A program made the position numbers and the translations under genes. DNA of 64,000 bases from NCBI GenBank assembly GCA_963765895.1, contig CAVXZB010000041.1:32001-96000 (forward strand). The letters run 5' to 3'. Positions 2,766-55,326 of this stretch are shown piece after piece. Position 1 is the stretch's first letter. Every line of letters starts with the position of its first letter. Under the pieces are notes generated by a model. The model saw only the letters and a list, made by a program, of their open reading frames with translations. It did not search any database and was not told where the DNA came from. The stretch comes from an uncultured Nitrososphaeraceae archaeon. Lineage in GTDB: Archaea > Thermoproteota > Nitrososphaeria > Nitrososphaerales > Nitrososphaeraceae.

Positions 2766-2783
2766 TTTTTCGGCTTCGAAAAA
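2766..2783. promoter_or_regulatory. Dispersed palindrome copy 1 (TTTTTCGGCTTCGAAAAA, 2 mismatches)
   Basis: Matches consensus TTTTTCGGCGCCGAAAAA. Lies 8 bp beyond the stop of the first parB-like gene and about 330 bp upstream of the aminopeptidase. Confidence 0.7.
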
Positions 2784-2791
2784 CTTTGCTT

Positions 2792-3666
2792 TCATATTCT
2801 GCTTTTGAACTTCATCTTTTCACTTATTAGAAGATCAATTTGCTTATGCAGCATTCTCTTGTGCTGCATTAAAATTTCGTAAAATATCCAATTTTCCTCT
2901 ATGTTTTCAATAACTTCTCCCAATCTCATCATAGCAACTTTTAATACGACAATGGATCTGTCAAACGACTTTAGAACTCTTTCTTGGTTTTTGGCAAAAT
3001 TTAATACATTTGTAAAATCATTTTCGGTATTTCGCATTTGATCACAACCTGCTGAGCTTTAATATGCATGCGTGTTTTTCTTAGAGATAAATGTTTATCC
3101 AATATCGTGCCAACGAGTTCTACCTGTTTCACAGGGTCTTTAATGGAACTTAGTTCTTCTGCAATACTAACTGGTATATCAGAATTAAGGATTGAATCAA
3201 TTACCTTGGAAGGCAAATCAAGTAATCCTATACGTTTCGTTATATAGCTAATACTTTTACCTATCTTTTTGGATAAATCAGTTATTCCTCCCCATCCGAA
3301 ATCTACTACATATTTTTTGAATGCCTGCGCCTCGTCGATGGGATCAAGACTTTTTCGTTGTATATTTTCTACTAGAGAAACCTCGAAAGCTTCCTTGTCG
3401 TCCAATTCTACAATATAGCATGTTATTTTTCTCCAACCTAATGATCTGCAGGCGTTATATCTTCTGTTACCGGCTACGATTTCAAAGTGCTCATCTTTCA
3501 CCCTTACTATAATTGGTTGCAAAAGCCCTTTTTGTTGTATGGACTTTGATAAGTCTAGCGTAGAGTCCATACTAGATCTACAGAAATATGATTGACGGAT
3601 ATGGAAAATATCTACGTCTTGTATTGAACCTGGCACGAGTTCAGAATGATATACTAATCTAGACAT
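2792..3666 (-). CDS. ParB/Spo0J-family protein (paralog 1), split by one frameshift near 3040-3060
   Basis: GLLQPIIVR, IVAGNRRY (CTPase GxRR box), ENIQRKSLDPIDEA and HTH GITDLSKKIGKSISYITKRI. ORF 2792-3037 supplies a C-terminus matching that of 51468-52358. Confidence 0.9.
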
Positions 3667-4029
3667 TCTTTATTATCTGGAATTTGGAATACAATAAACT
3701 TTATCATATTGAATTCTGTAAAAACATAGCAGTTACTAACTAATCATATTTTAGTATGAAATATCCTAGATTAGAAATGACCAACGTTTAACTACAGCAT
3801 CCTAGAATTGATCAATATGCCTCATGTACTGTATAACACGGATTCCCAATATTCAAGTACAAAGTGGAAAACGATACTTAGAGTTCTTCAGGTTGTGGTG
3901 GTGGTTCGATAAATTCTGGTCATTTAAGGCATTAATCCATTATCGACCATTTCTACATCAGGATTTAGAAAAGATGAACTATCTGTCTGAGATAAGAATA
4001 TCGACCTAAATAAGTTATAATTTATAGTT

Positions 4030-4977
4030 GGCTATGTAGAAAACATCATCAATATTACAAGATTAGTCAGTCTATGCATATTGTAGGTGATACATCTAAA
4101 TGATAACTCTCTGTTCTGCATTCTAGTCAATCTAGACATAAGATTCTCTCCAAATAGTCGTTTTATAACTGATATTATGGTTTCATCTTTGTTTCGTTGA
4201 TTGTACAGCAATTTGGAGTAACCACGCTTCATCTGCTTTCTGTACTTACCATGTGTTCTCCACATCGGTACATGTTCATATCGAGCAGGAATAATACTGA
4301 ATGCATGTAAGTCCTCTCTTACGAGAAGGTGATTATCTTCACTATCGTAACCCTTATCAGCTGTAACTACGGATAATGGAAGAATATTTGATGTCCTTGT
4401 TACAATTGGCCTGAAATCTACATTATCATGCCTTGTTGGAGCTCGTCTTATCTTAATTGTACATATGATTTGTTGTAATACATCTACTCCAATAGATAAT
4501 TTCGCATATTTTCTTCTCAATTCTGTTCGATCAGTATAATATTGTGATGCATGAGTTATCTTAAATCCTGTTGAATCTATTCCTGCAAAGATATGCTTGG
4601 TACCACTAATTACAATGAATGACGAAATTATCTTTTCAAGCAATGAATTATTAATTCTATCTGTAAACTTTTGCAATGTTGTAAAATGAGGAATACGTGA
4701 CAACCGTAGAAATGACCTTAGGTAATAGGCTTCAATTAACCACTCGACAAACATTCTATAACTCTTACCTTCATACTGTCGTATAGCAACTAGAACTATG
4801 TGCTGCCATATTGTAAATATGTGATTACTTTTCCTGTTAGAAAATAGAGGAATCCTTGCATGCTTCAAAACACGGAACATAGTACCTGCAAGTCTGACGT
4901 ACATTGATTCTTTCAATAGACTATTGGTATTATACTCTTACAAAGCTTTGACTGTATGAGATGGTTTCTACACAGCC
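4030..4977 (-). mobile_element. IS5 family (ISH1-like) element, intact, 948 bp
   Basis: Terminal inverted repeats GGCT(A/G)TGTAGAAA. 8-bp target duplication TTATAGTT at 4022-4029 and 4978-4985. Confidence 0.93.
4032..4916 (-). CDS. IS5-family DDE transposase, 294 aa
   Basis: IDSTG, ADKGYDS and YNQRNKDETIISVIKR DDE motifs. Confidence 0.93.
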   Translation of the reverse strand: MKESMYVRLAGTMFRVLKHARIPLFSNRKSNHIFTIWQHIVLVAIRQYEGKSYRMFVEWLIEAYYLRSFLRLSRIPHFTTLQKFTDRINNSLLEKIISSFIVISGTKHIFAGIDSTGFKITHASQYYTDRTELRRKYAKLSIGVDVLQQIICTIKIRRAPTRHDNVDFRPIVTRTSNILPLSVVTADKGYDSEDNHLLVREDLHAFSIIPARYEHVPMWRTHGKYRKQMKRGYSKLLYNQRNKDETIISVIKRLFGENLMSRLTRMQNRELSFRCITYNMHRLTNLVILMMFST

Positions 4978-6624: not shown

Positions 6625-6641
6625 TTTTCGGCGCCGAAAAA
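6625..6641. promoter_or_regulatory. Dispersed palindrome copy 2 (TTTTCGGCGCCGAAAAA)
   Basis: Exact 16-bp palindrome, intergenic. Confidence 0.85.
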
Positions 6642-39028: not shown

Positions 39029-39130
39029 ACTAATATACCAGACCCATCATAGTTTCATGTTTGGTGATGACAATGTTTGTTCTTATTTCAAAATATTGTC
39101 CTTAAATGAGGTTTATCAATATATTTTCAT

Positions 39131-39152
39131 AATTTTTCGGGGCCGAAAAATT
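39131..39152. promoter_or_regulatory. Dispersed palindrome copy (AATTTTTCGGGGCCGAAAAATT)
   Basis: 22-bp palindrome with one central mismatch. Confidence 0.85.
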
Positions 39153-39383
39153 GAACCCATCATTGAACGCTACTCTTCGCATACTCATATTGGTTGTCAG
39201 CATAAGTGTATGAGAATTGTCAACATGATGCACTCAATTGCAGGATAGAAAATGTTATTGGCGCTATCACTACTTAGCTACTCTCATAAGTAAAGTTTCT
39301 CATCTGAAGATATAAAACACTTTTTGCGTAATTCTTGTACGTAATAAGGATTAAATTCTATTCTATCCTTATGACGGTATTTT

Positions 39384-40087
39384 ATGTCTCATAACAACAA
39401 ACAGACAAGTGTTCCTAAATCTTTAAAGGATTTCAAATCCACCTCACCACACTTTGGCAATCATATGTCATACTTCGAACTCAATCCAGCTATTCGTAAT
39501 ATAGGATTTTTCAATTTTTTTGAGAAACTGGCAACAACAAAAGAATTGAAACACCTGATCAGTAGTGCAATCGGATTAGGAGAAAAATGAAGGAGCTATA
39601 CAGTAAATGGCCTTCTGCATATGAGCTGATGCCTGATGACTTTTATCTAGATAATAGGCTTATGATATATAGTAATGGTCAGCCCCTACATGGTACTAAT
39701 GAAACATATCTGAAGAATGAATGGAGTTTGCCTAAAAGTATGCATCCTAATTTCAGTAAAGCAATGGAATTTAAAAAAACTCTTGGAGAAAAACTACCTG
39801 AAAACGACGATGATATACTTGTGATTTATGCTAATACTGAGACTCTCGATACAATAGGCCATTCATCTACTTGTATACTATAGATGGGAATATTTCATTT
39901 CAGCCCACCTTTTGATTTTAACCAGCATGGAGATACTCTTGTCGTTACAAAAGTGCAATGGGTTCTATGTCGGACTCGTTTGCTTATAAGAACTCCAAGT
40001 CCATATCAAATACACATACAGTGTTACCCAATGATAAAGCCACTATCGAAGAAATTAAGAAATTTCTTAATCCTTAATTCTTATTAA
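39384..40087 (+). pseudogene. Fragments resembling the C-terminal part of an LCAT/lipase-like alpha/beta hydrolase
   Basis: WPSAYELMP and HGDTLV (GDGTV-like) in three abutting short ORFs. Confidence 0.5.
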
Positions 40088-40432
40088 TACCTAGATGGTA
40101 TCTTTCCTTCTCTTATCTATTAAATAATAACAAATTCAAGATCAATTACTACGATTAGGGCTTCAATTGTTTTACATAGAGGCAAGTTATTCACGATCTT
40201 TGGTACTAGTTCAAATGCGGACCAAAGCAAACCATACAACTCTCTTAAACAGATCAAATGCGGCTGACTCAAATGAACCACGGATACTATCTATATTGGA
40301 GGATGATCTTTAGGAAATGTTAATTAAGTCTACACTTGAACCCCTTTATGTACAGGAACTAACCCCTTTGGATCCAAATCAATCTTGTTCATTTAATTAG
40401 GCCCACCATCATAATACAATTAGAAAACTAGA

Positions 40433-40625
40433 GTGGCTGTTACAGAAGAACAGGACCATTTATCTCAGTTTATGTATAGCCTCAAGGCCCCTGTGACAAA
40501 GAAGCAGTGGCCACGAAGACTTAAAGTGTTGTTTGACTTCTTAAAAATCGATGGAACTTTAGATGATCAGGCAAGACATTTTTGTACTCCAAGCAAGGCA
40601 GGATCCCCGTTGGGCCCAGTCCAGG
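40433..40625 (+). pseudogene. N-terminal remnant of a tyrosine recombinase
   Basis: FMYSLKAPVTKKQWPRRLKVLFDFL resembles the N-terminus of thaumarchaeal integrases. Confidence 0.6.
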
Positions 40626-40696
40626 TCGGTTTATGTACCGATATGTGTGGTCAGATATTTATGACGCTCTATAAGTGTAATATTGTCAACGTAATA

Positions 40697-41731
40697 TTAG
40701 GAAGAAAATAAACCTCTCCATACGAACGGACCTCGCAACTTTTGTTTTGCAATCGATTCCATTTGCATTGGTGCAAGTTCTGAATCATATATGTAACCTA
40801 TTGAGTGATGATCAATGACACTTGCGGGAGTAGTCATTCCTTTCCATGGTTCCATTGGATCATTAATATTGTGTCCTTGTGGCCCACCTATGTTAGGTAC
40901 ATAGCCTTCAGTAGGATGTTGTTGTTGCCATTGAGCCCACAGACGATCGATATTACAGTGATGTAGAAAGAAAACTGGGTCATTAGGAGAAGTGCTCCAG
41001 AACATACTTCCTGCATCGTTAAACTCTTGTGGCGTGCCACCTGAAACCCACAGGTGTACACGATTATGAATATTTCCATCTCCATACCATCCCTCTAATC
41101 TGTTACGAAAGCTTGGTTGGGGAACAACAGGATCAGCATCAGTATTAGTCATCCATGGAGGACTATCATAAGGAACGACTTTGAGAGCATCCGTAACCTG
41201 TTCAGTAGTTGGTAATGTTGGAACCAACTTCGCAAGCCCTCTTCTTAAATATGGCTGTGGATTGGGTTCGTCAACATCATTTATGTTAAGGTTCCATTTT
41301 CCAGTATCGTATGCGAAAGGTCCAGTCATCACCTTATTATTATCAGAGGTACCGCTTCCTCCCATGAAGTCATTATCCCAAATAGATGAATCAATTTCAT
41401 TATCAACAGTCCAGTCCCAATAAGGTAAAGTTACACGCTGATCAATTGATTGCAAGTCTTTCTCGAATCTGCGAATGAATTCTCGGTGCCATGGAAGAAA
41501 GGCTGGTCCCTGGTGAGCGGACATTGGGCTTGTCGATATCATCAACATTCTTGCGGAATGAATTACTACATAATCATCGTACTTGTTATTTGATGGAGGA
41601 TAGAGTTGGCTTGGGCTTTGTTTTAATGCAAGTACCGCATTGGTGAACGCTTTCCTCTCGCCAGGAGATAATTTTGCCTGATCTCTTCTAATTATTAATC
41701 CATTTTTGCTATCGCCCATTTGCATTTGCAT
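40697..41731 (-). CDS. Tyrosinase (type-3 copper)
   Basis: CuA: YVVIH..AHQGPAFLPWHR. CuB: IHNRVHLWV..SPNDPVFFLHHCNIDRLW. Confidence 0.95.
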   Translation of the reverse strand: MQMQMGDSKNGLIIRRDQAKLSPGERKAFTNAVLALKQSPSQLYPPSNNKYDDYVVIHSARMLMISTSPMSAHQGPAFLPWHREFIRRFEKDLQSIDQRVTLPYWDWTVDNEIDSSIWDNDFMGGSGTSDNNKVMTGPFAYDTGKWNLNINDVDEPNPQPYLRRGLAKLVPTLPTTEQVTDALKVVPYDSPPWMTNTDADPVVPQPSFRNRLEGWYGDGNIHNRVHLWVSGGTPQEFNDAGSMFWSTSPNDPVFFLHHCNIDRLWAQWQQQHPTEGYVPNIGGPQGHNINDPMEPWKGMTTPASVIDHHSIGYIYDSELAPMQMESIAKQKLRGPFVWRGLFSS

Positions 41732-41819
41732 ATTCTATACTTCTTCTATGACAGGGTGTTAATAAAGAAGTTGTTTTTAGCTGTGTTTTTCTAATTCGAT
41801 AATCTATCTTATCCACGAA

Positions 41820-41836
41820 TTTTTCGACGCCGAAAA
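41820..41836. promoter_or_regulatory. Dispersed palindrome copy (TTTTTCGACGCCGAAAA)
   Basis: One mismatch, about 90 bp upstream of the tyrosinase start. Confidence 0.82.
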
Positions 41837-42145
41837 GAGTATAGTCTGGGTATAGTAACGTGGTACTATAATCTTTTATTGCATTTAAGCAACACAACAT
41901 AATCATTTTTTGAAAGCATACAGTTTTCTCTTGTTTTAAGTACCTGTTATGATCAGATTTATGACGTACTATAAGGCATCTTATTGACATATACCTTCAT
42001 GATTGAGAATTGAAGGTGATCATAAGTGTATAATGAAAAAAATCTCTAGATTAGTGCGTTATCAATCAATTAGCCTAACGATTGGACATTTATTAAATCA
42101 ATATAGTACTTGATTTCAAATTATAACAAAATCGCGATCTCATAT

Positions 42146-43011
42146 CTACTTGATAACTGTAAATTGTTCTAGAATTTGTCCATTAGCTGACTTGGCATAG
42201 ACATCTGCCCTTTTGCCTTGAATTACAAAAAGGTAATAACCATACCCTTTATCGTATGCAAAAGCGGTCCATTTATTTTTAGATTCTTCAAAGCTATACA
42301 GCATTCTTCCACCAGCACCACTTATAATATATAGATCTGTCCACGATCCTGACGAAAATCTAAACCTGAAGAGGTTATTATGGGTTCCTGATCCAAGCCG
42401 CTGTACTTGATAGGAAGTGTCCTCTGCATATTATGGGAGTGGCCTTGAATTACAAAATCAATTTGACCACTATCAAATAACGGCTGGTATGCGTCTCTTG
42501 CCTTCCTTTCTGGTCTGTGTCCGCCTTTCAATGTATAAAGAGGTTTATGGACCATCACCAGAATCCAATCTACTTTATGTTCATTGTCCCTCAATCTGAC
42601 TGCTTCTTCTAATTTGGACTTGAACCAGATAAACTGGTCCAATTTTAAGTCCCAATCTGGATCCTGACTATTCATACATATAAAGTAAATATTGTCTATT
42701 TGTTTTGCTGTCATCCACTCTGTTATATCAAAATATTTTTCAAGTTGTTCCTTAACATTATCACTTTCGTTTTCTTTGTCATCATGGTTTCCTATGGAAA
42801 AGATTGTCTTTTCTTTCAACCCAAAGGATCTAAATATATCAATAAAACAAGTCGCATCAAGTTCATAGGATGAATCACCCAAGAATAGATTCGCATCAGG
42901 CTTTTCATTGACTATATTTTGAAATGTTTTCTTCGCATCATCGCTACAAGTCGTATCTCCTACCGCAGTAATTAAAACCTTTTTGTGCGTATTATCAGAC
43001 TGGTTCATCAT
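42146..43011 (-). CDS. Metallophosphoesterase (purple acid phosphatase-like); frameshift near 42325; IS inserted just upstream
   Basis: AVGD, FLGDSSY, IGNHD, HKPLY and GHSHNMQR. The shifted frame continues SGAGGR...GYGY...FTVIK*. Confidence 0.85.
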
Positions 43012-43041
43012 CTATTAATTGACCGTTATTGCTGACCATCT

Positions 43042-43989
43042 GGCTGTGTAGAAACCATCTCATACAGTCAAAGCTTTGTAAGAGTATAATACCAATAGTC
43101 TATTGAAAGAATCAATGTACGTCAGACTTGCAGGTACTATGTTCCGTGTTTTGAAGCATGCAAGGATTCCTCTATTTTCTAACAGGAAAAGTAATCACAT
43201 ATTTACAATATGGCAGCACATAGTTCTAGTTGCTATACGACAGTATGAAGGTAAGAGTTATAGAATGTTTGTCGAGTGGTTAATTGAAGCCTATTACCTA
43301 AGGTCATTTCTACGGTTGTCACGTATTCCTCATTTTACAACATTGCAAAAGTTTACAGATAGAATCAATAATTCATTGCTTGAAAAGATAATTTCGTCAT
43401 TCATTGTAATTAGTGGTACCAAGCATATCTTTGCAGGAATAGATTCAACAGGATTTAAGATAACTCATGCATCACAATATTATACTGATCGAACAGAATT
43501 GAGAAGAAAATATGCGAAATTATCTATTGGAGTAGATGTATTACAACAAATCATATGTACAATTAAGATAAGACGAGCTCCAACAAGGCATGATAATGTA
43601 GATTTCAGGCCAATTATAACAAGGACATCAAATATTCTTCCATTATCTGTAGTTACAGCTGATAAGGGTTACGATAGTGAAGATAATCACCTTCTCGTAA
43701 GAGAGGACTTACATGCATTCAGTATTATTCCTGCTCGATATGAACATGTACCGATGTGGAGAACACATGGTAAGTACAGAAAGCAGATGAAGCGTGGTTA
43801 CTCCAAATTGCTGTACAATCAACGAAACAAAGATGAAACCATAATATCAGTTATAAAACGACTATTTGGAGAGAATCTTATGTCTAGATTGACTAGAATG
43901 CAGAACAGAGAGTTATCATTTAGATGTATCACCTACAATATGCATAGACTGACTAATCTTGTAATATTGATGATGTTTTCTACATAGCC
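43042..43989 (+). mobile_element. IS5 family (ISH1-like) element, intact, 948 bp
   Basis: TIRs as at 4030-4977. 8-bp duplication GACCATCT at 43034-43041 and 43990-43997. Confidence 0.93.
43103..43987 (+). CDS. IS5-family DDE transposase, 294 aa
   Basis: One amino-acid difference (V/I) from 4032-4916. Confidence 0.93.
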   Translation: MKESMYVRLAGTMFRVLKHARIPLFSNRKSNHIFTIWQHIVLVAIRQYEGKSYRMFVEWLIEAYYLRSFLRLSRIPHFTTLQKFTDRINNSLLEKIISSFIVISGTKHIFAGIDSTGFKITHASQYYTDRTELRRKYAKLSIGVDVLQQIICTIKIRRAPTRHDNVDFRPIITRTSNILPLSVVTADKGYDSEDNHLLVREDLHAFSIIPARYEHVPMWRTHGKYRKQMKRGYSKLLYNQRNKDETIISVIKRLFGENLMSRLTRMQNRELSFRCITYNMHRLTNLVILMMFST

Positions 43990-44648
43990 GACCATCTACA
44001 TGATTTAAATATTTTCAAAATCAGCAGATCTGCAATTGTCTATTAAACAATGAGATTGAAATTATGAATGTGTATATGGAATGTGTGTATGGATAGTAAA
44101 GCAAAACACAGGATGTATTGATAAACAAGTTCATGATATCAAAAGTTATTGGCTAAAATACAAACTTGATGACTTTGGTGCTTATATTCATACAATGTTT
44201 GACGTCATATGAAACCTTTGAGATTTCAAGCTGAGACCATCGTTGGACTTTATAATCCAACTCAACAAATGCTCAAATCTGAACCAGGTTCTAAACGGCA
44301 TGCAACCAGCTAGACGCTTTGATTAGGTTATTTTCCAATAGTGCAAACTAACTAAACCTCTCAAAGGAATAAGAATATTCCACACACTACAAGCTTAAAA
44401 TTTCGGATTCATGTTTGCGGCCCCAGAACGTCACACGTAGAGTAAATATCGATATTATCATTATTCAGTAGAATTGAACATTATTTGTACAATAATAAAA
44501 ATTAGACGACTGCATCTATTCTCCAATACGATTCAAACTACTGTTTGGCCTATCTTTATTGCTGCACCCATATTCATGTCTCACACACCGTGTTTGGACA
44601 TGATCTGTTGCTGTAATTGAGCTATTTTGCTATCCATATCTTGAAAAT

Positions 44649-45258
44649 TCAAATTAACCAACCTTTTCGTGGTTCATCTAGCAACTTTTCTTCAATTGGT
44701 TTATTGTAATTTGGGTCGTTAGTTTGTTGTGGTTCTCTTCCTTCTTTAATTAGTTCGACTAAGATGGCAGCAGCCAGTCCTACATGCCTATCTATCTGAA
44801 ACCACTTATCTTTGTTGTCATCTAGTTCCAACAGAACTACTGCCCGTATAAAAGCATGCCAAACGACATATCCTTCTACCTTGCTATCCATCATGTGGAT
44901 CTTGTCACCAACTGGTCTTCTAGGTTGACCCTTATCATCTACGCCATTATCAAAGAGAAGGCCTTGAGCAAATAATTCAAAAGCCTTTTGTTGTAATTCT
45001 ATGTTGCTGTCAAAATATTTCTGGATTATTCTCGTAATATTAGATGATAATAGCCTGACTAATTCTTTGCATGGAATTTTTAAATTCAGTATCCACACTA
45101 CCTTTTCGAGCACAAAAATAAAAAAGATCAAGCATCTTACCATATGGATCTACTTTAAGCATAGCCTCCGTAATGTCATCGGGAGAGCTAAACAAAAAGA
45201 AATTATCGTATTCATACCAAAAATCCATTGCATTTTTCTCTTCAGAACTATTCATCAT
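44649..45258 (-). CDS. Hypothetical protein split by a frameshift
   Basis: Overlapping ORFs 45040-45258 and 44649-45143 on the same strand. Confidence 0.55.
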
Positions 45259-46385
45259 GTTACCCTATTGTGAATTTCTATTCTTAATAAGGATTTAGGC
45301 GATCAATGATACTGCGATCATATTAATAAAATACAATAATGAATACAAAACTGAAAAAATATAGTAGTATGGATTAATTCTGAATGAATAAATAAATAAA
45401 TATTAATGAGATAGATTGATATCTAAAGTCGAAACGTAATGCGAATAAATCATTACAAAATATATTGACCGAAGGCTTTAGATTTCTCGGATTATTGAAT
45501 CTTGCTTAATTTATTACATACGTATTCTTCAAATATTTCATGGAATTTTGAGGAGATAATAAACATGGAAATTATTAGAAAATCACTAGTTCAGTTCTAT
45601 TTGATATTCTCCAATAATTCCATGACAGTATTGTACGGTTTGCGCCGTGTGTTATTATTGGGTGTACACGTTCATTTTCTAGCAAACGATTTCAATAGAT
45701 GTATAGTGTTATACGATAATGACTGAAGGTAAATAATGTCATTAGTTCTTTTATAAACTGTGTTGTTGGACAAGACATGATCCAAAAGTCAAGCATATAC
45801 GTGTATCATTTGTGACATCCATTATTGACAATTTTCTGCTATCATATTAAAATCCATATCTGATCTTTTATTTGTTGAATATAAAGCCATGGTATAAAGG
45901 TCCGATTGTAGAGACATAATAAGTGACTTTGTGATTAGGAATCTAACAAAATGAGTCATCAGAGGATCTAATTATACAAATATAAGATTTCTGTTCTAAG
46001 AATATAGACCAATTTCTATTTCTATTATCTGTTCTAAGGTAGCTACTTTATTACATGGATTGCAAGCTAAATTTAGCTGTTATACATTCAACGGATTTAC
46101 CTCGTATTAATGTCTGGAAAATGTCAGAAAAGTTGTGCCAGCTAAAATGTCATATGCTATACGCTATTGCAATGTTCTCGTTTCATCGAAATGTCATCCA
46201 AGCTGAAAATTACTCGATCTAGGCAAAAGAATCAGACTAACGATACCACATGAGTAACGTGTGCACGTAAAGTGGTACATTTATTAGACTAGTCTAGATT
46301 GATGTTTAGGATTCTTGCTAGATGTAGAGGAAGATTCCTTTGCTCATACGCTACGACCTTTGGCCACAGATTGATCACAATATCT

Positions 46386-48070
46386 TCATTTTTTTCTATT
46401 TTTCTTAGTATCTCCACTTTTTCGGCTCTCTTCCTCTTCCTCTTCCTCGTCTTTTTCGAATTTCGGCTCTCTGACTGGTTCTTCTAGCTTAAACAGCAAA
46501 GAAATTCTGCGTACACTATTCTGTAATCTTTTTATCTCTCCTCTGAGTTCAATTATTTCAGGATCTGGTACCAGATCTTCTGTACAACATGAATCCTCGC
46601 ATTCTGATTTGCAACATGTTTCAGATTCATGCCTGATTCTGGAATCACAATCACATGGTCTTTTCGGTCTATGATGACAGAAACTTATGCAATGCGAACT
46701 GATACCATTGGTTATAACACAAAGATCATAATGTCCGTAGGGAATATTTGAGGTATTAAACCTAGCCGATTGTAAAGAAGCTCCTGTGGCAACGCCCATA
46801 GTACTAAAGTTATAAGTCCGTGCGAAATAGACCTTGTTGGTACTAGTATTCTGTAGTCTAACTATAGGATAATTTGTGGCAGGATAACAGTCATCGCCGT
46901 AGGTGTTTGCTTGGGATAAACCATTTAACTGCGTGCCCTTTAATATATAATAATCAGTCATATAGGGGGTACCATGTCGTACTACAGCTGAGATCGTTGG
47001 TCTCCATCCCTCTTCTGGACCAAGGTCTGGAGTATAGCATTGAATATTATTTGTACCTCGGGCTAAAAAGTACCTGACCTGTAGGTAGCAACATCAGACG
47101 ACTCCAGAACAATTGTTGCTTATTATTCAAAGGTGTCGATACTTGGGAAATAGTATTACTGAGGGGATCATATTCGAAAAAGAAGATAGGCGTCCCCCAC
47201 GTATTAGGCTTGTAAAATGACGCGGTAAAAAAGACTTTACCATTTGGCAGCAAGCATGCCGGACAATCATTACATACAATCGTTTGGTTTTCTATTTTTG
47301 GTATATTGGGTCCGGCAGTCCAAGTCCCTGTGCCAGTGGGGGTAGGAGGAGGGGTATAGACAGCTGTTTTGCCAAAACCTCTATCGTCAGCTGCGCCGAA
47401 GAATACAGCCTTACCATTATACATTAGCATGGCCGGTCCTATTTCATGCATATCCGGATCAATCAATGTAACTGGTATTATCCCTTCATTTTTCCAAGTA
47501 TTAGACGAAATAATATACTTTTCACTTTGATAAGGATTAAAGCATTGTGGCGCTATAATGGTATTGTCAGGTAGCAGGATCCATGTTTCTTCATTCGATC
47601 TAATTGCTTTACTGGCTGCTGGTGACCATGAATTAGTCGAGGGATCATATATATCGCATGCAGGAGATAGCAGAGCCCCGATCATAATCCTTCCATCTGG
47701 AAGTATACAGGATGCTCGCATCTCCCACCTCTGACCATCCAGGTGGAGTAGGAATTGAGGTCCATGTATCTAAAACATGGTCATAGATTTCACCTTTATT
47801 GGTATCAGGAATATCTCCACTTTGCTCTCCACCAATGATTATAACGCGCCCATCTTTAAGAACTCCAGATGCATAGTATCGTCTCATGAAGCTCATATCG
47901 GCTAAGGTTGACCACGTTCCATTGATGTAGCTTCCGTTACTATCCGGTGTTAAAGCATGCCAATGAGGAGTGTCTTCTTCCTGTACCATTACTCTACCAT
48001 CAGTTAGCAGTATCATTGTACTGGTGTAAAATGTAGGTTGATTGACTAATCCTTGCCAAGTGCCTGCCAT
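46386..48070 (-). CDS. Kelch-repeat beta-propeller protein with a Cys-rich, coiled-coil and charged tail; two frameshifts
   Basis: Repeats LLTDGRVMV, VLKDGRVIIIGG..GEIYD, LPDGRIMI..IYDP, LLPNGKV and LLPTGQVL, then NYPIVRL. Confidence 0.82.
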
Positions 48071-48525
48071 TGTTTTTTACTATTTTACTACATATAGATA
48101 AACATAATCCAGTTTGATAAAAAATAACGGAGTTCTTTCTTTCACAGTGGTAAGCCTGAGACTGTTATACACTATTTTAAATTGTAATATGTATTTATTT
48201 GTGAGGGGCACTATGAATTCGGTACCTCGACTTCAAATTAAACTGAGTTTATGTACCATTGCGCAATATAAGATCATATCCCAAACAAGTTTGGAAAATA
48301 CCCCAAAAACTTCTACTAACTCATTCTAGCCGACAATTATTAGAACTATACCAGTACAGCTTCGAAAGTATCGAGTATAATCAATGGGTCATGAATCACA
48401 TAATGAAAAACTGCAGAGTAGGGTATTAGAAATACAATCACAGCAGAATACAATTTATCATACCATCTATAGTTATTAATGAATAACTTTGTAAAAGATA
48501 TACTTCCAAAGAGATTTTAACTGAG

Positions 48526-48543
48526 TTTTTCGGCGCCGAAAAA
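48526..48543. promoter_or_regulatory. Dispersed palindrome copy (perfect 18 bp)
   Basis: TTTTTCGGCGCCGAAAAA between the divergent Kelch and zincin-like genes. Confidence 0.88.
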
Positions 48544-48751
48544 TTGAATTAGTACTATAGCTATCATACTACGCATTATTGCACCGAAGTAACGTGATAT
48601 GTTTATTATGACTGGATATGTTAAATTACGGATTATAGTATTCCATTATGGAACATTATCTCACTATGTTTTGCATTGTAGTTTTAAGACGTGGTTCAAC
48701 TCAATCACAGAATTTCTTAAATAGCATATAGTTAAAAGACGATTATGTCAA

Positions 48752-49579
48752 ATGATCAAACAAGTATGCCGGTTGCTGCCATTCAACGAAAGTACTGTAG
48801 TAAAAGACGATGAAGTTGAGAAAGCAGTGAATGCATTGCAGAAACAGGTTAATAATGATTTGTCGAAATACTGGGGAAAAAGTGCGAAGCTTACATTTGT
48901 ACCAAAAGGTCAAAAAATACCCCGTGATCAATGCTGGATGGCGATAATGGATAATACAGACCAAGCTGGGGCAGGTGGCTACCACGATCTTACTGACCAA
49001 GGCTTACCTATGGCTAAAGTATTTGCTAAGACAGAAATGGATCATGGTAATGAATGGACAACTGCTGCTTCTCACGAACTCTGTGAGATGACTATAGATC
49101 CATGGATAAATCTAGCCGCTATTATAGAAAACGAAGATCATGGTATGAGATTATGGGCTTACGAAGTAAGTGATCCCTGTGAGATAGATGCACAAGGATA
49201 CAAAATAGACGGAGTTTTAGTATCTGATTTTATCACCCCACAATGGTATGAACCTGGAGCAATAAATTATCGAAATGTCAAGTTTGACCATATGGGCCAT
49301 CTAAAACAACCATTTGAAATATTGGAAGGTGGCTATGGACAAGTATTTGATATACTCAAAGGCAATGGATGGCAACAAATAACAGCCAAGAAACCAGGCC
49401 CATCAGATTTGCAGCTTTTAGAAAGTAAAGGATCCGCGGAGTCAAGAAGAACGTATATTGTATCTGCAATGGACGCAAATTATTATGAGTATAGACAAAG
49501 ACCTTATCTAGGTAGTAGAAGAGAGAGAAGAAGATCACCACGCCATATGTGGCTAAGGAGTCAGATCCGGAATCGTTAA
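48752..49579 (+). CDS. Hypothetical protein, probable zincin-like metalloprotein
   Basis: GYHD, ASHELCEMTIDP (HExxE variant) and YEVSDPCE. Confidence 0.65.
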   Translation: MIKQVCRLLPFNESTVVKDDEVEKAVNALQKQVNNDLSKYWGKSAKLTFVPKGQKIPRDQCWMAIMDNTDQAGAGGYHDLTDQGLPMAKVFAKTEMDHGNEWTTAASHELCEMTIDPWINLAAIIENEDHGMRLWAYEVSDPCEIDAQGYKIDGVLVSDFITPQWYEPGAINYRNVKFDHMGHLKQPFEILEGGYGQVFDILKGNGWQQITAKKPGPSDLQLLESKGSAESRRTYIVSAMDANYYEYRQRPYLGSRRERRRSPRHMWLRSQIRNR

Positions 49580-49706
49580 AGAACAAAGATATAGCCATTC
49601 TTTTTCTGTTTTGTCGATTATCTTATTCTTTTACTATCTTATTTATTTTAATCAACAATACTGCATTTTAGTTACATTACATAATTTTAATGAGAAATAT
49701 TAAGAC

Positions 49707-50249
49707 TTATTTCGCTAAGATATTCAACATGAATGGCTGTTTGATAATAAAGTTAGCTTGGTCATAAGAATACAATAATTGTAGTAGAACAGTAAGTTTT
49801 CCGGGGTTTATTGCTAAATATTGTGTTTCCCCATCAAACCTCTGAATAGTACCAATAGATAATGTAGTTGATTTTCCAGGAGACAGTGCAATATTATAAT
49901 AATTCTTGACGGTGCAAAACCCGTGGTGTACAATATCTATATTCTTTTCAAAGGTGGCAGTTAACGGGTGTGTACATCCAATAGAAGAAAGTGTTACACT
50001 TTTAGGCGAATTATTTGATACAGTAACAATTATTTTGAAAATATCTTCTACATGTACTGGTGAGGGTACAGTATGAATGTGAACGAGCATTACTGCGTTA
50101 GAGGATGATAAACTTCTGGAAGAGGCAGATGAAGCAAGCGCAGGTACAACATTATCGCTGATTATACTTTGCATTTCTGGAGCCAAAACTATTATGGATA
50201 GCGCAATAGTTATCATCAAATATTCTGTTCTCCACTGGGAAGATCTCAT
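49707..50249 (-). CDS. Hypothetical secreted beta-sandwich protein
   Basis: Hydrophobic leader and a Cys pair. Confidence 0.6.
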   Translation of the reverse strand: MRSSQWRTEYLMITIALSIIVLAPEMQSIISDNVVPALASSASSRSLSSSNAVMLVHIHTVPSPVHVEDIFKIIVTVSNNSPKSVTLSSIGCTHPLTATFEKNIDIVHHGFCTVKNYYNIALSPGKSTTLSIGTIQRFDGETQYLAINPGKLTVLLQLLYSYDQANFIIKQPFMLNILAK

Positions 50250-50524
50250 TGATAATCGACTCCAGTACCGGTCGTAACATTAAGTATTGTCATAACACAA
50301 GTTAACGACTTATTGTCTTTAATTGTGAATTTAATTGAGAATATATAAACATACATAGACTAGAGTCATATATGTGATATGTTCCGAATCCCTACCTTTA
50401 TCATCATTTGCGTTTTTGATAATAATCTATATCAGTGAATTATGGGTAAGCAAACACAAAATACTCGACATAGAGAAGACCGATCTATAACTAAGGACTG
50501 ATAGGAGTTCAATTAATTGAGATA

Positions 50525-50541
50525 TTTTTCGGCGCCGAAAA
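50525..50541. promoter_or_regulatory. Dispersed palindrome copy (TTTTTCGGCGCCGAAAA)
   Basis: Exact 16-bp core, intergenic, 0.9 kb from the intact parB-like gene. Confidence 0.87.
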
Positions 50542-50915
50542 ATTAGGCTCAACCTGGGAAAATTACAAAAAATAATGGTAATAACAGCAAATTTGTTCTT
50601 ATTGATTCACATTTAACCAGAATAATTACGAAGTATCGTCTAATACTTTCACGATTATTTACACCATTAACATCAATAGAGGATCTGCGTAACGAGTTGG
50701 GAAACTAGGTATTTTGGTACTGCCGCGTCTAACGAATATTTAGCTTTTTTCCTTCTTTCCAGCAAAACTGCAATTATAGATACTCCTCTTTGTTTATCTA
50801 TTCATCTGCAGAATAGCATCCATCAGGTATTATTTGGTAATAGCAATGCCACAAATATGGTGTCAGTTGATTATAGTACTAGACGAATGTGATTATATTT
50901 ATTTCAGGCAAGCTA

Positions 50916-51338
50916 TTAATCCTTGCTAATAATTTCTGCCATCACATGCTTTATCAAGTCTTCACTCGAAACTGGTTTTTTTATGAAGCATTTTACATCG
51001 AGCTTAGGAAATTGCTCCTTTAGAGAATCATAGTACTCCTCAAATGCAGTTATGAAGCAGACCTTTATATCAGAATCCTTTTTCCTAATCTTTTCGTATA
51101 ATTCAAAGCCATTAATTTTAGGCAATCGAATATCAATAATTACGAGATCATAATACTGTGGCTGGAAGGTGGACAGGGCTTTAAATGGGTCACTATAAAA
51201 TGTCACATGAAATCCTTGATCTTCTAAACAAGTTTTAAAAAATAAACTAACATCTTGTTCATCATCAATAACCAATATTCTTGGAATATACTTATCTTTT
51301 ATCAAGAGATCAGCTGCTAGGTATGGTTTATCCTTCAT
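50916..51338 (-). CDS. Stand-alone response regulator receiver protein
   Basis: ILVIDDE, DLVIIDIRLPKING (phospho-Asp), FITA and KKP. Confidence 0.92.
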   Translation of the reverse strand: MKDKPYLAADLLIKDKYIPRILVIDDEQDVSLFFKTCLEDQGFHVTFYSDPFKALSTFQPQYYDLVIIDIRLPKINGFELYEKIRKKDSDIKVCFITAFEEYYDSLKEQFPKLDVKCFIKKPVSSEDLIKHVMAEIISKD

Positions 51339-51467
51339 AATTATATATACAAGTCATATATGTCCTTTTAATATTATAATCCTTGACTATCACGTTTTCA
51401 ATATAATCTAATATTTTTTCCAAAATACGGCAAAATGGTTATATATAACCAGACAACGTAACTAATA

Positions 51468-52358
51468 TTGTCAAAGGAACTGACGACCTCTAACACAACA
51501 AGGGGATTGTTAGCAGATATCGATATTTATCAAATTAGACACCCACCTACTTTTTATAGATCTACTAAAACTAATCTAATGTTAGGGACCAAACAGCTAG
51601 CTGAACTTTCCAAATCCATTGTACGACAGGGCCTTTTGCAACCAATCGTTGTCAGAGCAAAGGCAAGAACAAATCACTTTGAAATAGTTTCGGGAAACCG
51701 CAGATATGAGGCGTGTAAAGCATTAGGTTGGCGAAAGATGGTTTGTCATGTTCTAGAACTAGATGATAGAAATGCATTTGAGGTAACATTAATTGAAAAT
51801 ATTCAAAGGGAAAATCTTGATCCAATAGAAGAAGCTCGTGCATTTAAAATTTACGTAGAAGAGTATGGATGGGGTGGAATATCTGACTTGGCATCGAGAT
51901 TGGGTAAGAGTGCTAGCTATGTAGATAAACGTATAAAGCTTTTGGACTCACCTGCCGAGATAATCGAAAGCTTATCTAATCATTCAATTAGTCCTAGTAT
52001 TGTTGAAGAATTAAGCCCCATCAATGATCAGAAAGTAGTAAGTGATCTTGTTGAGATGATAAATAAAAAAGGACTGTCTTCTAGGAAGGTACGAAAGCTA
52101 GTAAAGGAATACAAGAAAGAATCCTCTCTAGAGATCTATAATTTTCATGACACCGAGGACAAAATCGTAGATATCGATAGAATGGTCCAAAATTCTTTTG
52201 ATAAATCGATAGTTGCATTGAGAATCGCCGCCAGCAGAGTAGCTACAATAGTAGAGAGTATGGAAGACAACTGGATTATACATGAAATCTTAATGCAGCA
52301 TAAAATGATGTTGCATTCGCAGATAGATGTGTTAATAAAAGAAAAGAAAAAGCTTTGA
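51468..52358 (+). CDS. ParB/Spo0J-family protein (paralog 2, intact)
   Basis: GLLQPIVVR, IVSGNRRY, ENIQRENLDPIEEA and HTH GISDLASRLGKSASYVDKRIKLL. Confidence 0.93.
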   Translation: MSKELTTSNTTRGLLADIDIYQIRHPPTFYRSTKTNLMLGTKQLAELSKSIVRQGLLQPIVVRAKARTNHFEIVSGNRRYEACKALGWRKMVCHVLELDDRNAFEVTLIENIQRENLDPIEEARAFKIYVEEYGWGGISDLASRLGKSASYVDKRIKLLDSPAEIIESLSNHSISPSIVEELSPINDQKVVSDLVEMINKKGLSSRKVRKLVKEYKKESSLEIYNFHDTEDKIVDIDRMVQNSFDKSIVALRIAASRVATIVESMEDNWIIHEILMQHKMMLHSQIDVLIKEKKKL

Positions 52359-52388
52359 ACATATTATCTGGTCACATGTTGGAACAAA

Positions 52389-53288
52389 TTATAAGGTGTT
52401 TGAATTCATCTTCTTCTTCCTTTGTTACTATTTTGTGCCAAGCATCTGTGAATCCATCAGAATATGCAACATTTCCTGGTGAAACAGGAATTGGCGTTTG
52501 ATATTATAAAAATCATGAAATTCCAATCCTCTTCCACATCGGTAATAATTTCAGATATTCTATTCATAGCAATCCTTAAGGCATTGATAGTCTTATCAAA
52601 TGCTCTTTTACCTATCAAAATATGTCTATTATAAATCTGATTAGCATATATCTCAGTGCTGACATCTCTGTAAAGGCGTAAGAAATTACGAGTTTTCCTT
52701 AAAGACATCTGTCTATTAATTATGAGTGAAGCGAGCCTTGACTATTCAGAATTATCCCTTACTGAAAGCAATTCCTCTGCAATACTTGTTGACAATTCCT
52801 TATTTGTTAGAGCTTCAAGAACTTCTGCTGGAAGATCAAGTAATTTGATGCGCTTGGAAATATAACTTATACTTTTACCAATTCGACACGATAAATCTGA
52901 TATCCCTCCCCAACCAAAATTTGAGGTATACATTTTGAAGGCCACCCTTCATCCATTGGATTATAGATTCTTTTGTATATTTTCTAAAAAACTAATCTCA
53001 AATGCATTTCTGTCGTCACATTCTACAATATGACAAGATATCTTTTTTGAAACCCAAGGTTTTATATGCCATAAACCTCCTGTTACCCGCAACAAGTTCA
53101 AAATCGGAATCCATGGGCCTAACCAAAATTGGTTGTAGTAATCCCTTTTGCATAATTGAAGCCGAGAGATCTTCAATATTTGTCACATTTCTATGAATAT
53201 TTTGCGACTGCCTAAGTTTTGAAGATCTATGTCTTCAAAAAAAAACTAGAGGAGACTAGGGAAGATATCTGGCGTACGTTTTTGGCAT
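52389..53288 (-). pseudogene. ParB/Spo0J-family protein (paralog 3), multiply frameshifted, convergent with paralog 2
   Basis: KGLLQPILVRP, LVAGNRRF, LENIQ, GWGGISDLSCRIGKSISYISKRIKLL and AFDKTINALRIAMNR. The lower coordinate is approximate. Confidence 0.87.
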
Positions 53289-53486
53289 CTCGATTCCCAC
53301 ATATGGGATTTAATATATACTGTTTCCTATACTAATCACTTTATTAGTTAAACTCCAATATTAGCAAATCGTATATTTAATCTATCACAACCTGTGACAC
53401 ACCATGATATGATAGAATCCTAATATGGCGTTCGACTGAAGCGGCGACGATATGGAGGATGGTATCTGGACTCGCTGATTCGGCCC

Positions 53487-55148
53487 TCAGTGCTGCCTGC
53501 TTGCTAGCTTGAGGGTAAGGGAAGCAACATGAGCTGATATCCCGTCGTAAAATGCAGCCAAGTGCTCCTTCATTTTTGTCCTCGACTTCGGTTTAGACAA
53601 ATTGTCCAGATAAATCATATGCCCAGACTCATAATTGTGAAATTCAAGGTTATCGAGGCTCGTTGGGTTGCCTATAGGCATATTTTTTAAATCCAACTTA
53701 GTTTGGAAGAACGGTGTCACAGCGTCATAATATCCATTTGCACAAAAGACTTTGAGGTATGGGTTTATCTCCATAGACGCTGCTAGATCGCCGGCTGTGT
53801 ATAGAGGTTCTAGTCCGCTCTTTTTGGCTCCGGTTGGATCGGTGTGTTCAAAATTCCATATTTCAGCGACAAGAGGGTTAAGGGCTATGAACGGAGATGT
53901 TGATATATACTTGAGCTCTTCATTTAGGTACACGTTCCACATGGCGGTATAAACTCCACCCACAGCAGTTATGGTGGGATCATTTCCCCCAGACTTTGGA
54001 TCCACAGACCCGGCGATTCCTGTATCATTTGAATTGACACGGCCATCGTACTGACCCAATACTCTATCCTGCAAAAGGCTTTTCAGAAAAATTGTGTTGC
54101 CCTCTATGGCAGGATCGAGATTCCAATCCTCAAGTACCTCGGATGGGATCCCGATAAACTGGCTCAGAGATTGAACTGTGGCTGGATCTCCCTTTGTATA
54201 GGTTGCCTTCGCGGCAGCAAACGGCCCGGTCGCGAAGTCCTCGACCTGCTTCATAAAACTGTCCAGGTCGGTTGGAAGTGGCGACACTGTCACCTTACCG
54301 TAGAACAATGCATCAGCTGCAAAAGTTGGAAGTAGACCAATAGGATTGGATATTTGAGAAAAGTCCAGAATTGAAGACTGCAATATTATTCCGTTCAGAT
54401 CCACACCATCTTCATGAAGCAACCAAGTTAACACACAGGTTCGCGGTGTCCCATATGATTCTCCGAATAGGAATTTTGGTGAATTCCAGCGACCATAGCT
54501 AGTTAGATAACGCTTTATAAATTGCTTAATTGATTGTGCGTCTGTATCTACACCCCAGAAATCCTGGTTTTTCGCAGGAGCGATCGCTGCAGAGTATCCG
54601 GTTCCCACAGGGTTTATGAAGACAAGGTCGGTGCGGTCGAGCAGACTATCGGCATTGTCTTCCAACGCGTAAGGCGGAGGGGTAAACTCAGGCAGGTTCG
54701 TCTTAATGCATCGTGGTCCAAATGACCCTAGCAATAGAAACACAGAAGATGATCCCGGACCCCCGTTATAAAAGAAAGTCACAGGACGGCTAGACGCGGC
54801 GACATCGTTGGCAGTGAATGATACATAAAAGATCTTGGCATAAGGTAGCGCGGTATCTTGATCGTATACCACGAGATGACCAGCGCTGGCAGCATATGAT
54901 ATAGTAGTCCCATTGATCGTGATATTATGCTGTGTAACTACAGCTTTCTCGATAGTATCACTTATTGAATCTTTTGGGCCTGGCCCGTATGCTGTATTAT
55001 CGACAAGCGGTTGGTCTGACGACTTAGCTTGGACTAGAACTGATTCATCCATGTTGGGCTCTTCCTCCCCAAAGGTATCTGGCAGCCCTGATTCTCCAGA
55101 TGCCAACCAAACGACATGCACCATCAGACTTCTCTTGACTGGCTTCAT
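53487..55148 (-). CDS. S10 serine carboxypeptidase (start may be the Met at about 55052)
   Basis: FFYNGGPGSSS, NPVGTGYS, GESYG, GYYDAVTP and YESGHMIY. Confidence 0.93.
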   Translation of the reverse strand: MKPVKRSLMVHVVWLASGESGLPDTFGEEEPNMDESVLVQAKSSDQPLVDNTAYGPGPKDSISDTIEKAVVTQHNITINGTTISYAASAGHLVVYDQDTALPYAKIFYVSFTANDVAASSRPVTFFYNGGPGSSSVFLLLGSFGPRCIKTNLPEFTPPPYALEDNADSLLDRTDLVFINPVGTGYSAAIAPAKNQDFWGVDTDAQSIKQFIKRYLTSYGRWNSPKFLFGESYGTPRTCVLTWLLHEDGVDLNGIILQSSILDFSQISNPIGLLPTFAADALFYGKVTVSPLPTDLDSFMKQVEDFATGPFAAAKATYTKGDPATVQSLSQFIGIPSEVLEDWNLDPAIEGNTIFLKSLLQDRVLGQYDGRVNSNDTGIAGSVDPKSGGNDPTITAVGGVYTAMWNVYLNEELKYISTSPFIALNPLVAEIWNFEHTDPTGAKKSGLEPLYTAGDLAASMEINPYLKVFCANGYYDAVTPFFQTKLDLKNMPIGNPTSLDNLEFHNYESGHMIYLDNLSKPKSRTKMKEHLAAFYDGISAHVASLTLKLASRQH

Positions 55149-55308
55149 TCCATCCCCTCACACTACCTTCGAGAATTGAATGTGTTTGAAGATTATTCAT
55201 ATCTAATTAGAATCTTAATAAAGTGCCTCATAAGTTTTTTGCATAGGGAAAATCGAATTAGTTCGAACGATAGGAACGCAGATTAATTCGTTGAGTAAAG
55301 TGTAACAA

Positions 55309-55326
55309 TTTTTCGGTGCCGAAATA
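55309..55326. promoter_or_regulatory. Dispersed palindrome copy (TTTTTCGGTGCCGAAATA)
   Basis: Two mismatches, upstream of the S10 gene. Last copy seen in the window. Confidence 0.75.

Follow-up and report, generated by a model that had tools for sequence, protein, structure and literature searches.

Why does one short palindrome recur ten times between the genes of a stretch of archaeal DNA that also encodes three proteins of the ParB family, and which protein reads it? In this study, which was based on a window of 64,000 nucleotides (G000:C41:32001-96000; 36.7% GC) from the genome of an uncultured Nitrososphaeraceae archaeon (G000; 4.9 Mb in 88 contigs, 88% completeness) and on its comparison with 151 genomes of the family, we show that one clade of ParB proteins and one palindrome family are bound to each other statistically and evolutionarily. 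The palindrome is quite probably the cognate DNA site, i.e., a parS-like loading site, of this ParB clade, and binding is predicted from sequence. This was also the proposal of the initial annotation of the window, and it is supported by the physical linkage of the site and the gene as well as by their co-occurrence across genomes.

The palindrome and its linkage to parB

The 16-mer TTTTCGGCGCCGAAAA matched the window at ten places with at most three mismatches, and five of these matches were exact (Table 1). In 100 dinucleotide shuffles, the mean number of matches was 0.13 and the maximum was 2, and ten or more copies were reached in none of them (0/100). The 8-base core, CGGCGCCG, was present six times compared with 0.05 expected. 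The initial annotation had counted five exact 16-mers and six cores and had expected fewer than 0.1 cores per 64 kb, all of which was borne out. The ten copies it listed were also recovered, with coordinates that were 0-1 bp off because the longer AATTTTT... form had been counted, but an additional weak copy at 19723 (ATTTCAGCATCGAAAA) was dropped because its four mismatches place it outside the set of up to three. A profile of 48 sites, ten from the window and 38 from three relatives, showed that conservation reaches A-A/T-T TTTTCGGCGCCGAAAA A-T/A-T, which agrees with the 22-bp form that had been written for the motif; the extended palindrome reads AATTTTTCGGCGCCGAAAAATT. Variation around the copy at 2767 could be followed in related contigs. 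In contig X4, base 2775 is a G, one step nearer the consensus, and in a contig that is about 97% identical to the window, four indels and several substitutions fall in the 40 bp before the site, while the sole change within the 16-mer goes towards the consensus.

The copies had been described as lying outside credible genes and as having mostly unrelated flanks, and both descriptions hold. Seven of the ten touch no open reading frame (ORF) of at least 50 aa, the other three overlap mechanical ORFs of 63, 93 and 105 aa in which no Pfam match was found, and all ten lie outside ORFs with family support. The flanks of eight sites have no mutual similarity; the single similar pair is that of 18506 and 29018, where the segments to the right of the sites (18522-18740 and 29034-29250) look like a local duplication that took the site along.

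Linkage of the site to parB was assessed using the intact ParB protein of the window (51468-52358, paralogue 2 in Table 1) as the query against the 151 genomes. Sixty loci with up to 5 kb on each side were taken from the top of the bit-score ranking among the matches listed (about 224 bits and above, with some in this range skipped). In 25 of them, which span seven genera (g12, g17, g8, g5, g2, g14 and g4), a copy with at most two mismatches lies 1-183 bp past the parB stop, and genera whose ParB proteins share only 45-57% identity have retained the 16-mer unchanged. Two further loci have a contig end inside a copy and one has a copy that overlaps the 3' end of the ORF. Of the 35 copies found in the 481,215 bp of these loci, 25 (71%) fall in the 1-183 bp zone, which makes up 2.5% of that sequence. 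At six loci, and at paralogue 2 of the window, the site is found upstream of parB at a distance of 230-930 bp, in most cases with a receiver gene in between. By our own tally, 39 of the 60 loci have the palindrome or a symmetric variant of it either within about 200 bp of the parB 3' end or upstream at a distance of a few hundred bp. Approached from the site, 9 of 30 site-centred 3-kb loci, one per genome, contained a ParB gene.

At one mismatch or less, the motif was present in 51 of the 151 family genomes, with a reversed-sequence control close to zero. Genus g12 carries the motif in all 21 sampled genomes (2-32 copies each), and no exact copy was found among 186 genomes of a class-wide sample of 13 other families. 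The scan of relatives that had been suggested earlier was in favour of the pairing. By a hand tally, which is a descriptive count and not a test because kin genomes are not independent, 29 of the 32 genomes with at least two copies have a close ParB (E <= 1e-73), compared with 8 of the 100 genomes without the motif, and seven of those eight carry a variant palindrome beside the gene; the motif is thus not abundant where this ParB clade is lacking. Three of the 151 genomes (G035, G076 and G098), which have no motif copies and only distant ParB matches, contribute to the denominators only.

Moreover, other parB paralogues are accompanied by variants in which both half-sites are changed together and at the same place, among them ...CGACGTCG..., TTCTC...GAGAA, ...GCCGCGCGGC... 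and ...GCGGTACCGC... (Table 1). The GACGTC form was found at no more than nine places in the 151 genomes, five of which have a ParB match within 400 bp. A count of perfect TTT-(GC-rich core)-AAA palindromes gave ten for the 4.9 Mb of G000; six are the motif itself and one is TTTTGCGGTACCGCAAAA, which belongs to the ParB gene on contig C73 (G000:C73:69200-70221; 291 aa, 53% identical, intact, with a frameshifted receiver gene divergent upstream). This 18-bp palindrome lies 146 bp past the stop of that gene and is unique in the genome even at three mismatches; in G030, it is found 260 bp upstream of a ParB. In a third genome, G043, three or more ParB paralogues are present, and the private palindrome differs from one to the next. 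A dimeric reader that co-evolves with its site is expected to leave symmetric changes at a fixed place by the gene, whereas terminators, transposon ends or effects of base composition are not. Seven alignment columns separate the five GACGTC-type proteins from the 25 GGCGCC-type ones (e.g., position 184, Y versus P/S); as candidate specificity residues, coming from about three lineages, they are only a lead.

These observations also bear on whether the copies might be passive, i.e., remnants of mobile elements (ends of miniature inverted-repeat transposable elements (MITE) or of insertion sequences (IS), or an attachment site), terminator hairpins or the outcome of restriction-site bias, which we consider very unlikely. 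Such an origin would fit a window that is rich in IS copies, the duplicated flank of two sites, the T5 and A5 runs in the sequence and a repeated module of about 520 bp that adjoins some of the g12 sites. However, eight of the ten window sites have flanks without a common sequence, the 16-mer is kept exactly while the ParB proteins and the spacer to the stop vary, the changes in the variants are symmetric, and the window contains no Rfam family at gathering scores. The single forms of this explanation fare no better. As a terminator, the palindrome would be a weak RNA hairpin (-6.7 kcal/mol), and sites are also found between divergent genes (about 10 of 27 in g12). Restriction-site bias was rejected because GGCGCC is not avoided genome-wide (240 observed versus 191 expected) and other GC hexamers are unremarkable. 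A MITE or an array of clustered regularly interspaced short palindromic repeats (CRISPR) had already been excluded in the initial annotation, and we uphold this, as only one pair of sites shares a flank and the spacings are irregular (1.8-14.6 kb).

The ParB protein and its genes

Pfam recognised two ParB domains in the proteins. PF02195 (ParB_N) matched paralogue 2 with 69.1 bits and paralogue 1 with 70.8 (curated cut-off 26.3), and PF17762 (HTH_ParB), the helix-turn-helix (HTH) domain, with 59.1 and 60.5 bits (cut-off 22.6); paralogue 2 additionally gave a weak match to KorB (9e-5). Its best sequence matches in PDB were to Noc (7ng0 and 7nfu, about 1e-24), followed by Thermus Spo0J and the Myxococcus, Bacillus and Caulobacter ParB proteins (top set 1e-24 to 6e-20), and KorB was matched at 1.2e-9 (8qa8). 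An AlphaFold2 model built from 42 clade sequences (predicted local distance difference test, pLDDT, 86.7) led to the same proteins. Foldseek returned ParB, Noc and KorB bound to cytidine triphosphate (CTP) or diphosphate (CDP) first (E about 1e-13 to 1e-11; for KorB, 8qa9 with a template modelling (TM) score of 0.75), with the crenarchaeal pNOB8 ParB far behind (5k5d, E 6e-6, 15% identity). In a plasmid collection, the best ParB match was bacterial and 39% identical, and none was archaeal or close.

Across 62 clade proteins, box I reads GLL(Q/H)PIxVR and the N-terminus is conserved as MxKxxSxS. In box II, G76 and R79 are present in all 62 proteins and R78 in 61; in box III, E110 is present in 61 and N111 in 62, with the Q/H and R/S positions being variable. 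In canonical ParB, these boxes read GERR (II) and ENxQR (III), motifs named in part in PMC12704722; box II is G-N-R-R and not GERR here. The C-terminal part of the model consists of two long helices (229-264 and 269-295). Modelled as a homodimer, it reached a score of 0.69 compared with 0.02 for the best of three controls, and the model was symmetric, with 100% contact agreement between runs and a partner pLDDT of at least 87. Twenty of 30 proteins solved as one-chain pairs attained this mark, compared with 1 of 23 solved as single chains. The model supports, but does not show, dimerisation of the C-terminal domain.

Three ParB paralogues with intact-looking motifs had been reported for the window. 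Their number is correct, but only paralogue 2 is intact as assembled. Paralogue 1 has ParB_N (1e-19) and HTH_ParB (2e-16) in 3001-3666 on the minus strand and is interrupted by a frameshift, which is probably an assembly indel because the two public contigs that cover 3054/3055, both of low depth, one otherwise identical to the window and the other from the relative of about 97% identity, have one extra base there, and because amoA (G000:C24:168102-168652) is spread over three frames in this assembly. Read through, the gene ends at 2792. The adjacency of a palindrome to this gene, which had been given as 8 bp past its stop, was thus confirmed, with the distance corrected to 9 bp from the stop of the C-terminal piece. 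Paralogue 3 looks decayed in sequence, and the cluster that it forms with paralogue 2 is indeed bracketed by two copies (50526 and 55310). Other genes are also split in the assembly (receivers at C41:18329-18696 and C73:68154-68508 and a kinase on C53), and pseudogene calls from this assembly alone are unsafe because of such indel errors, as amoA exemplifies. A genome-wide scan for the ParB family recovered, in addition, paralogue 3, the intact copy on C73 and a split copy on C24.

Several points weigh against the palindrome being the site of this ParB clade. Twenty-one of the 60 ParB loci have no nearby palindrome by the criteria used, some of these being short contigs, and the linkage counts overstate the independent support because the genomes are kin and most of the 25 linked loci come from one genus. 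Paralogue 2 itself has no site within 200 bp past its stop, and its nearest copy is 926 bp upstream, beyond the receiver gene. Statements on the window that are based on ORFs are soft because of the indel errors. As for the protein, position 77 of box II is N, T, S, C or H and never the canonical glutamate in the 62 proteins, none of them (0/62) matched the ParA-contact motif [LFIVM]G[KR]G[LFIVM], and Pfam recognised no ParB C-terminal domain family in paralogue 2. In a quick version of a tree of the 62 proteins, the site types did not form clean clades and the backbone was weak, because of which we make no claim of co-divergence. Finally, three genomes (G092, G111 and G145; completeness 94, 87 and 87%) have multiple copies and no close ParB match. 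The last point, together with the comparative nature of the tie between ParB and the DNA and the presence of a receiver near parB in many loci (28 of 60), would suit an operator for another DNA-binding protein, with the site and parB merely travelling as a cassette. We judge this improbable. ParB is the sole constant neighbour of the site, whereas the genes on its far side differ by genus (unknown 465-aa proteins in g12, baseplate or extracellular contractile injection system (eCIS) genes in g14); the receiver lacks a DNA-binding domain, and 32 of the 60 loci are without it; and the variants change along with the adjoining parB paralogue.

A site-bearing region and the role of the pair

If the palindrome is the loading site of ParB, what is the pair for? 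In this genome, the motif is not chromosome-wide but almost confined to 67 kb of one contig. Genome-wide, 17 copies with up to two mismatches were found. Eleven of them lie within C41:34767-101959, spaced 1.8-14.6 kb apart, and of the six others, three (on C1, C3 and C33) belong to a single locus that recurs in near-identical contig ends; what the motif marks in this organism is thus a region of 67 kb and not the whole chromosome. Over 3.5-4.5 kb, these contig ends (C1:35471-39004, C3:33784-38243 and C33:6528-11000) are about 99-100% identical, with a palindrome copy of two mismatches and an adjacent IS in the shared block, which is either a recent repeat or assembly redundancy.

The 67-kb region has all three ParB copies of this type in the genome and three copies of an IS of about 945 bp with a DDE transposase, which is present in more than 40 copies at about 95-96% identity, plus older diverged ones, in the genome. 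Other genes of the region encode types of secreted enzymes (M1 and S10 peptidases, neprosin, tyrosinase and Big_5), and many ORFs belong to no family. No integrase, conjugation, replication or plasmid gene was seen when 50 ORFs of the window were scanned with Pfam; we do not call the region a mobile element because integrase and conjugation genes were not found. A 20-kb piece (38001-58000) is species-specific at the DNA level, since it matches congeners only at copies of IS or repeats and at the cassette of site, receiver and ParB, which is conserved as DNA in the congeners G033 and G065. The receiver of this cassette is 47% identical to that of G077, and no other protein of the genome matches the g12 operon receiver better. 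One repeat family (38020-39035), which ends about 100 bp before the site at 39134, has dozens of copies (75-80% identity) in the congener G044 and fewer in the other four congeners, and it includes an ORF of 129 aa (38631-39020) with no Pfam match. Two apparent gene fragments, the N-terminus of a FAD/Trp-halogenase-like protein (20259-20999, minus strand) and a DUF5996 protein that lacks its first third (57650-58243, minus strand; profile positions 99-295 of 296), may reflect real decay or assembly indels. The host is archaeal, with amoA and a single Orc1/Cdc6 match in the genome.

Table 1. Features of the window (positions counted from its first base) and symmetric variants of the palindrome in other ParB loci
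Feature	Position or locus	Strand	Remarks
Palindrome copy	2767-2782	.	2 mismatches (TTTTCGGCTTCGAAAA); 9 bp beyond stop of ParB paralogue 1
Palindrome copy	6625-6640	.	exact
Palindrome copy	16751-16766	.	exact
Palindrome copy	18506-18521	.	exact; right flank shares 210 bp (85% identity) with that of the 29018 site
Palindrome copy	29018-29033	.	1 mismatch
Palindrome copy	39134-39149	.	1 mismatch
Palindrome copy	41821-41836	.	1 mismatch; 89 bp upstream of tyrosinase-family gene start (41731)
Palindrome copy	48527-48542	.	exact
Palindrome copy	50526-50541	.	exact; first base of site-receiver-ParB cassette (92% DNA identity in G033)
Palindrome copy	55310-55325	.	2 mismatches
ParB paralogue 1	2792-3666	-	residues 1-213 in frame 3666-3058, residues 223-296 in frame 3007-2807 (tblastn)
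Stand-alone CheY-like receiver, divergent from ParB paralogue 2	50916-51338	-	Pfam Response_reg 4.6e-24
ParB paralogue 2, 296 aa, intact	51468-52358	+	ParB_N fold, HTH, two-helix C-terminal domain
ParB paralogue 3, remnant	52523-53252 (approx.)	-	two frames; TGA, TAG and TAA stops as assembled
DDE_Tnp_1 transposase IS copy, about 945 bp	4032-4916	-	
DDE_Tnp_1 transposase IS copy, about 945 bp	29412-30134	-	
DDE_Tnp_1 transposase IS copy, about 945 bp	43103-43987	+	
Variant TTTTCGACGTCGAAAA	L069, L072, L075, L077, L093		5 loci
Variant TTCTCGGCGCCGAGAA	L056		
Variant TTTTGCCGCGCGGCAAAA	L073		
Variant TTTTGCGGTACCGCAAAA	L070		
Variant ATTTGTCGGCGCCGACAAAT	L081		
Variant ATTTCTTGCATGCAAGAAAT	L097		

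In genus g12, the locus has the order histidine kinase, CheY-like receiver, ParA-family ATPase, ParB and then the site. The ATPase has 288 aa, matches AAA_31, CbiA, ParA and MipZ, and bears no more than a distant resemblance to MinD or Soj (best 3e-10). With the proteins of G077 as queries, ParA was found within 5 kb of parB in 16 of the 60 loci, the receiver in 28 and the kinase in 15. Neither in the window nor on the rest of contig C41 was a ParA gene found. The only close homologue of the g12 ATPase in the genome (C19:394798-396421; 41% identity, with an insertion) adjoins another stand-alone receiver, because of which the g12 unit appears to be split here into a receiver-ParA and a receiver-ParB part. 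The label of orphan ParB, given in the initial annotation, is therefore right for this window but not for the clade, in which ParA is adjacent in 16 of 60 loci; the genome itself has a ParA/MinD homologue elsewhere.

The dispersed sites were followed in three g12 genomes (G077, G012 and G116), in which none of 39 sites in 38 stretches touches an ORF of at least 80 aa. Such ORFs cover 42% of the 2 kb around these sites compared with 73% of the g12 ParB loci. Where both neighbours were called (27 sites), about ten sites lie between divergent, seven between convergent and ten between tandem genes, and because of this mixture the sites are not simply promoter elements. They are spread over many contigs, including one of 1.8 Mb, with local groups of 2-5 within 10-50 kb in each of the three genomes. 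Eight sites (L107, L110-L112 and L116 of G077; L124-L126 of G116) are followed by the module of about 520 bp mentioned above, the copies of which are 75-89% identical; at L116, a second site closes the module. It contains an inverted repeat with compensatory changes (AACAGGATGG...CCATCCTGTT versus AATAAGATGG...CCATCCTATT) and, on the other strand, a short ORF that by eye encodes a hydrophobic peptide of about 45 aa. The module may represent a small cassette, toxin-like or for a membrane peptide, that is linked with the sites. In genus g14, ParB and the site, 1-2 bp past the parB stop, head Baseplate_J/eCIS_core genes at two loci (L079, G106:C1:407389-418216; L084, G070:C53:11012-21752), which suggests ParB control of a contractile-injection or tail-like cluster.

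We propose that a ParB dimer would read the two half-sites through its HTH domain, bind a nucleotide, probably CTP, close as a clamp and spread from each site; from the 11 sites of the 67-kb region, a single continuous zone of ParB cover would thereby arise around the parB genes. As to its purpose, we lean slightly towards the regulation or organisation of a gene-poor accessory region, in the manner of KorB, Noc or VirB and under the adjacent CheY-like receiver, over origin-centred partition, because the sites are strictly intergenic, neither a local ParA nor a ParA-contact motif is present, a receiver is attached and a genome may hold several private pairs. Neither role excludes the other, and KorB has both; partition stays alive as a role because the g12 operon includes ParA.

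The sites might instead be true centromeres. In this case, an ATPase of the ParA/MinD type, for which the gene is found in trans in this genome, would move the ParB bound at them and thereby partition the chromosome or a large element, and regulation would be secondary. This shares the ParB-site pairing with the cognate-site reading and differs from it in the downstream role alone; we regard it as possible but rather doubtful. The g12 order of kinase, receiver, ParA-family ATPase, ParB and site, the presence of ParA near parB in 16 loci and the site beside parB, which is the classical parABS layout, all speak for it, as do the ParA homologue by the receiver on C19 and the local clustering of the sites both here and in G077, G116 and G012. 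However, a search for ParA found none in 44 of the 60 loci or on contig C41, the canonical ParA-contact motif is missing from all 62 proteins, and the ATPase is distant from MinD and Soj. Additionally, parB and cdc6 are on separate contigs in four of four genomes (G000, G077, G012 and G116), all 39 g12 sites are intergenic, which is no requirement for a centromere, and the three or more ParB paralogues of G043 with their private palindromes exceed the need of one chromosome.

Comparison with known systems

The pairing of a ParB with its site is familiar from bacteria and plasmids and, as far as we found, apparently undescribed for archaeal chromosomes. No DNA site for these archaeal ParB proteins was found in the literature, of which the supplements of PMC12704722 and PMC6563490 may list the genes, and the 14-base core string occurred in no paper in a full-text search. 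A 2025 survey of the ParB-CTPase fold (PMC12704722), in the parts that were accessible, states that the detection of archaeal parAB 'likely reflects contamination', sees canonical archaeal ParB as unlikely segregation proteins and gives no DNA site. The presence of the site on megabase contigs of g12 archaeal genomes, directly behind a ParA-ParB operon, bears on this view. In a 2022 comparative paper, to the extent that it was available, the ParB COG is only counted in sponge symbionts.

A more tentative proposal, which we hold to be somewhat unlikely, is that this family of soil ammonia-oxidising archaea owns a native and diversifying ParB-parS toolkit with private palindromes, wired to two-component signalling through the g12 operon and through receiver-ParB cassettes elsewhere. 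If this were true, phosphorylation would determine the places and times at which a nucleotide-gated clamp covers tens of kb of an archaeal chromosome, and the system would be the first chromosomal one of the ParABS type shown to be archaeal rather than contamination, and the first under phospho-relay control. The function of canonical ParB in archaea becomes directly testable with one protein and one oligonucleotide, with and without CTP, and several naturally orthogonal pairs of ParB and palindrome are on offer, with a possible link from two-component signalling to a DNA clamp.

Among archaeal systems, the TFIIB-ParB operons of thaumarchaeal integrative and conjugative elements (ICE) share ParB homologues, the archaeal phylum and an occurrence in variable regions with the locus described here; the accessible part of their description (Krupovic et al. 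2019, PMC6563490) does not speak of a cognate DNA site for ParB. The present pair was rejected as a member of this type, since TFIIB was found neither on contigs C41 and C73 nor in the 5 kb around any of the 60 ParB loci. The crenarchaeal pNOB8 ParB and SegAB are likewise archaeal DNA-partition proteins with a ParB-N-like domain, but pNOB8 ParB is only a remote structural match (5k5d), and the protein here is of the bacterial canonical type.

Noc, which acts in nucleoid occlusion in Firmicutes, provides the best sequence match in PDB and resembles the protein of the window in having no ParA of its own and many dispersed palindromic sites. Unlike those of Noc, the sites in G000 are gathered in 67 kb instead of being spread over the chromosome, and the N-terminus has about 12 residues before the first strand. 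KorB of plasmid RK2, a CTP clamp of the ParB family, is loaded at the OB site, a short palindrome with TTT...AAA arms, and acts on promoters at a distance; CTP use is predicted for the protein described here. About a dozen OB sites are distributed over some 60 kb of RK2. Dispersed non-coding sites in one region are common to both systems, and KorB is among the structure matches (8qa8 and 8qa9). The 50 window ORFs, however, have no plasmid or conjugation hallmarks in Pfam, no KorA-like clamp-locking partner was recognised, and the protein sequence is nearer Noc and Spo0J. An OB oligonucleotide is printed in the accessible part of PMC11790492.

Compared with bacterial ParB (Spo0J) and parS, the host is archaeal, the core is CGGCGCCG, box II has no glutamate, the LG[KR]GL motif is absent and the C-terminal two-helix hairpin is not recognised by Pfam. 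The sites are all intergenic, a receiver, in g12 also a kinase, is linked, and each paralogue has a private variant of the palindrome. The likeness nevertheless extends from the DNA to the protein. Both systems have a 16-bp palindrome with T-rich and A-rich arms beside parB, the ParB_N and HTH_ParB domains with best PDB and Foldseek matches to ParB bound to CTP or CDP, a conserved box I as well as GxRR in box II and EN in box III, and, in g12, a ParA directly upstream. The molecular principle itself would thus be the familiar one of ParB and parS.

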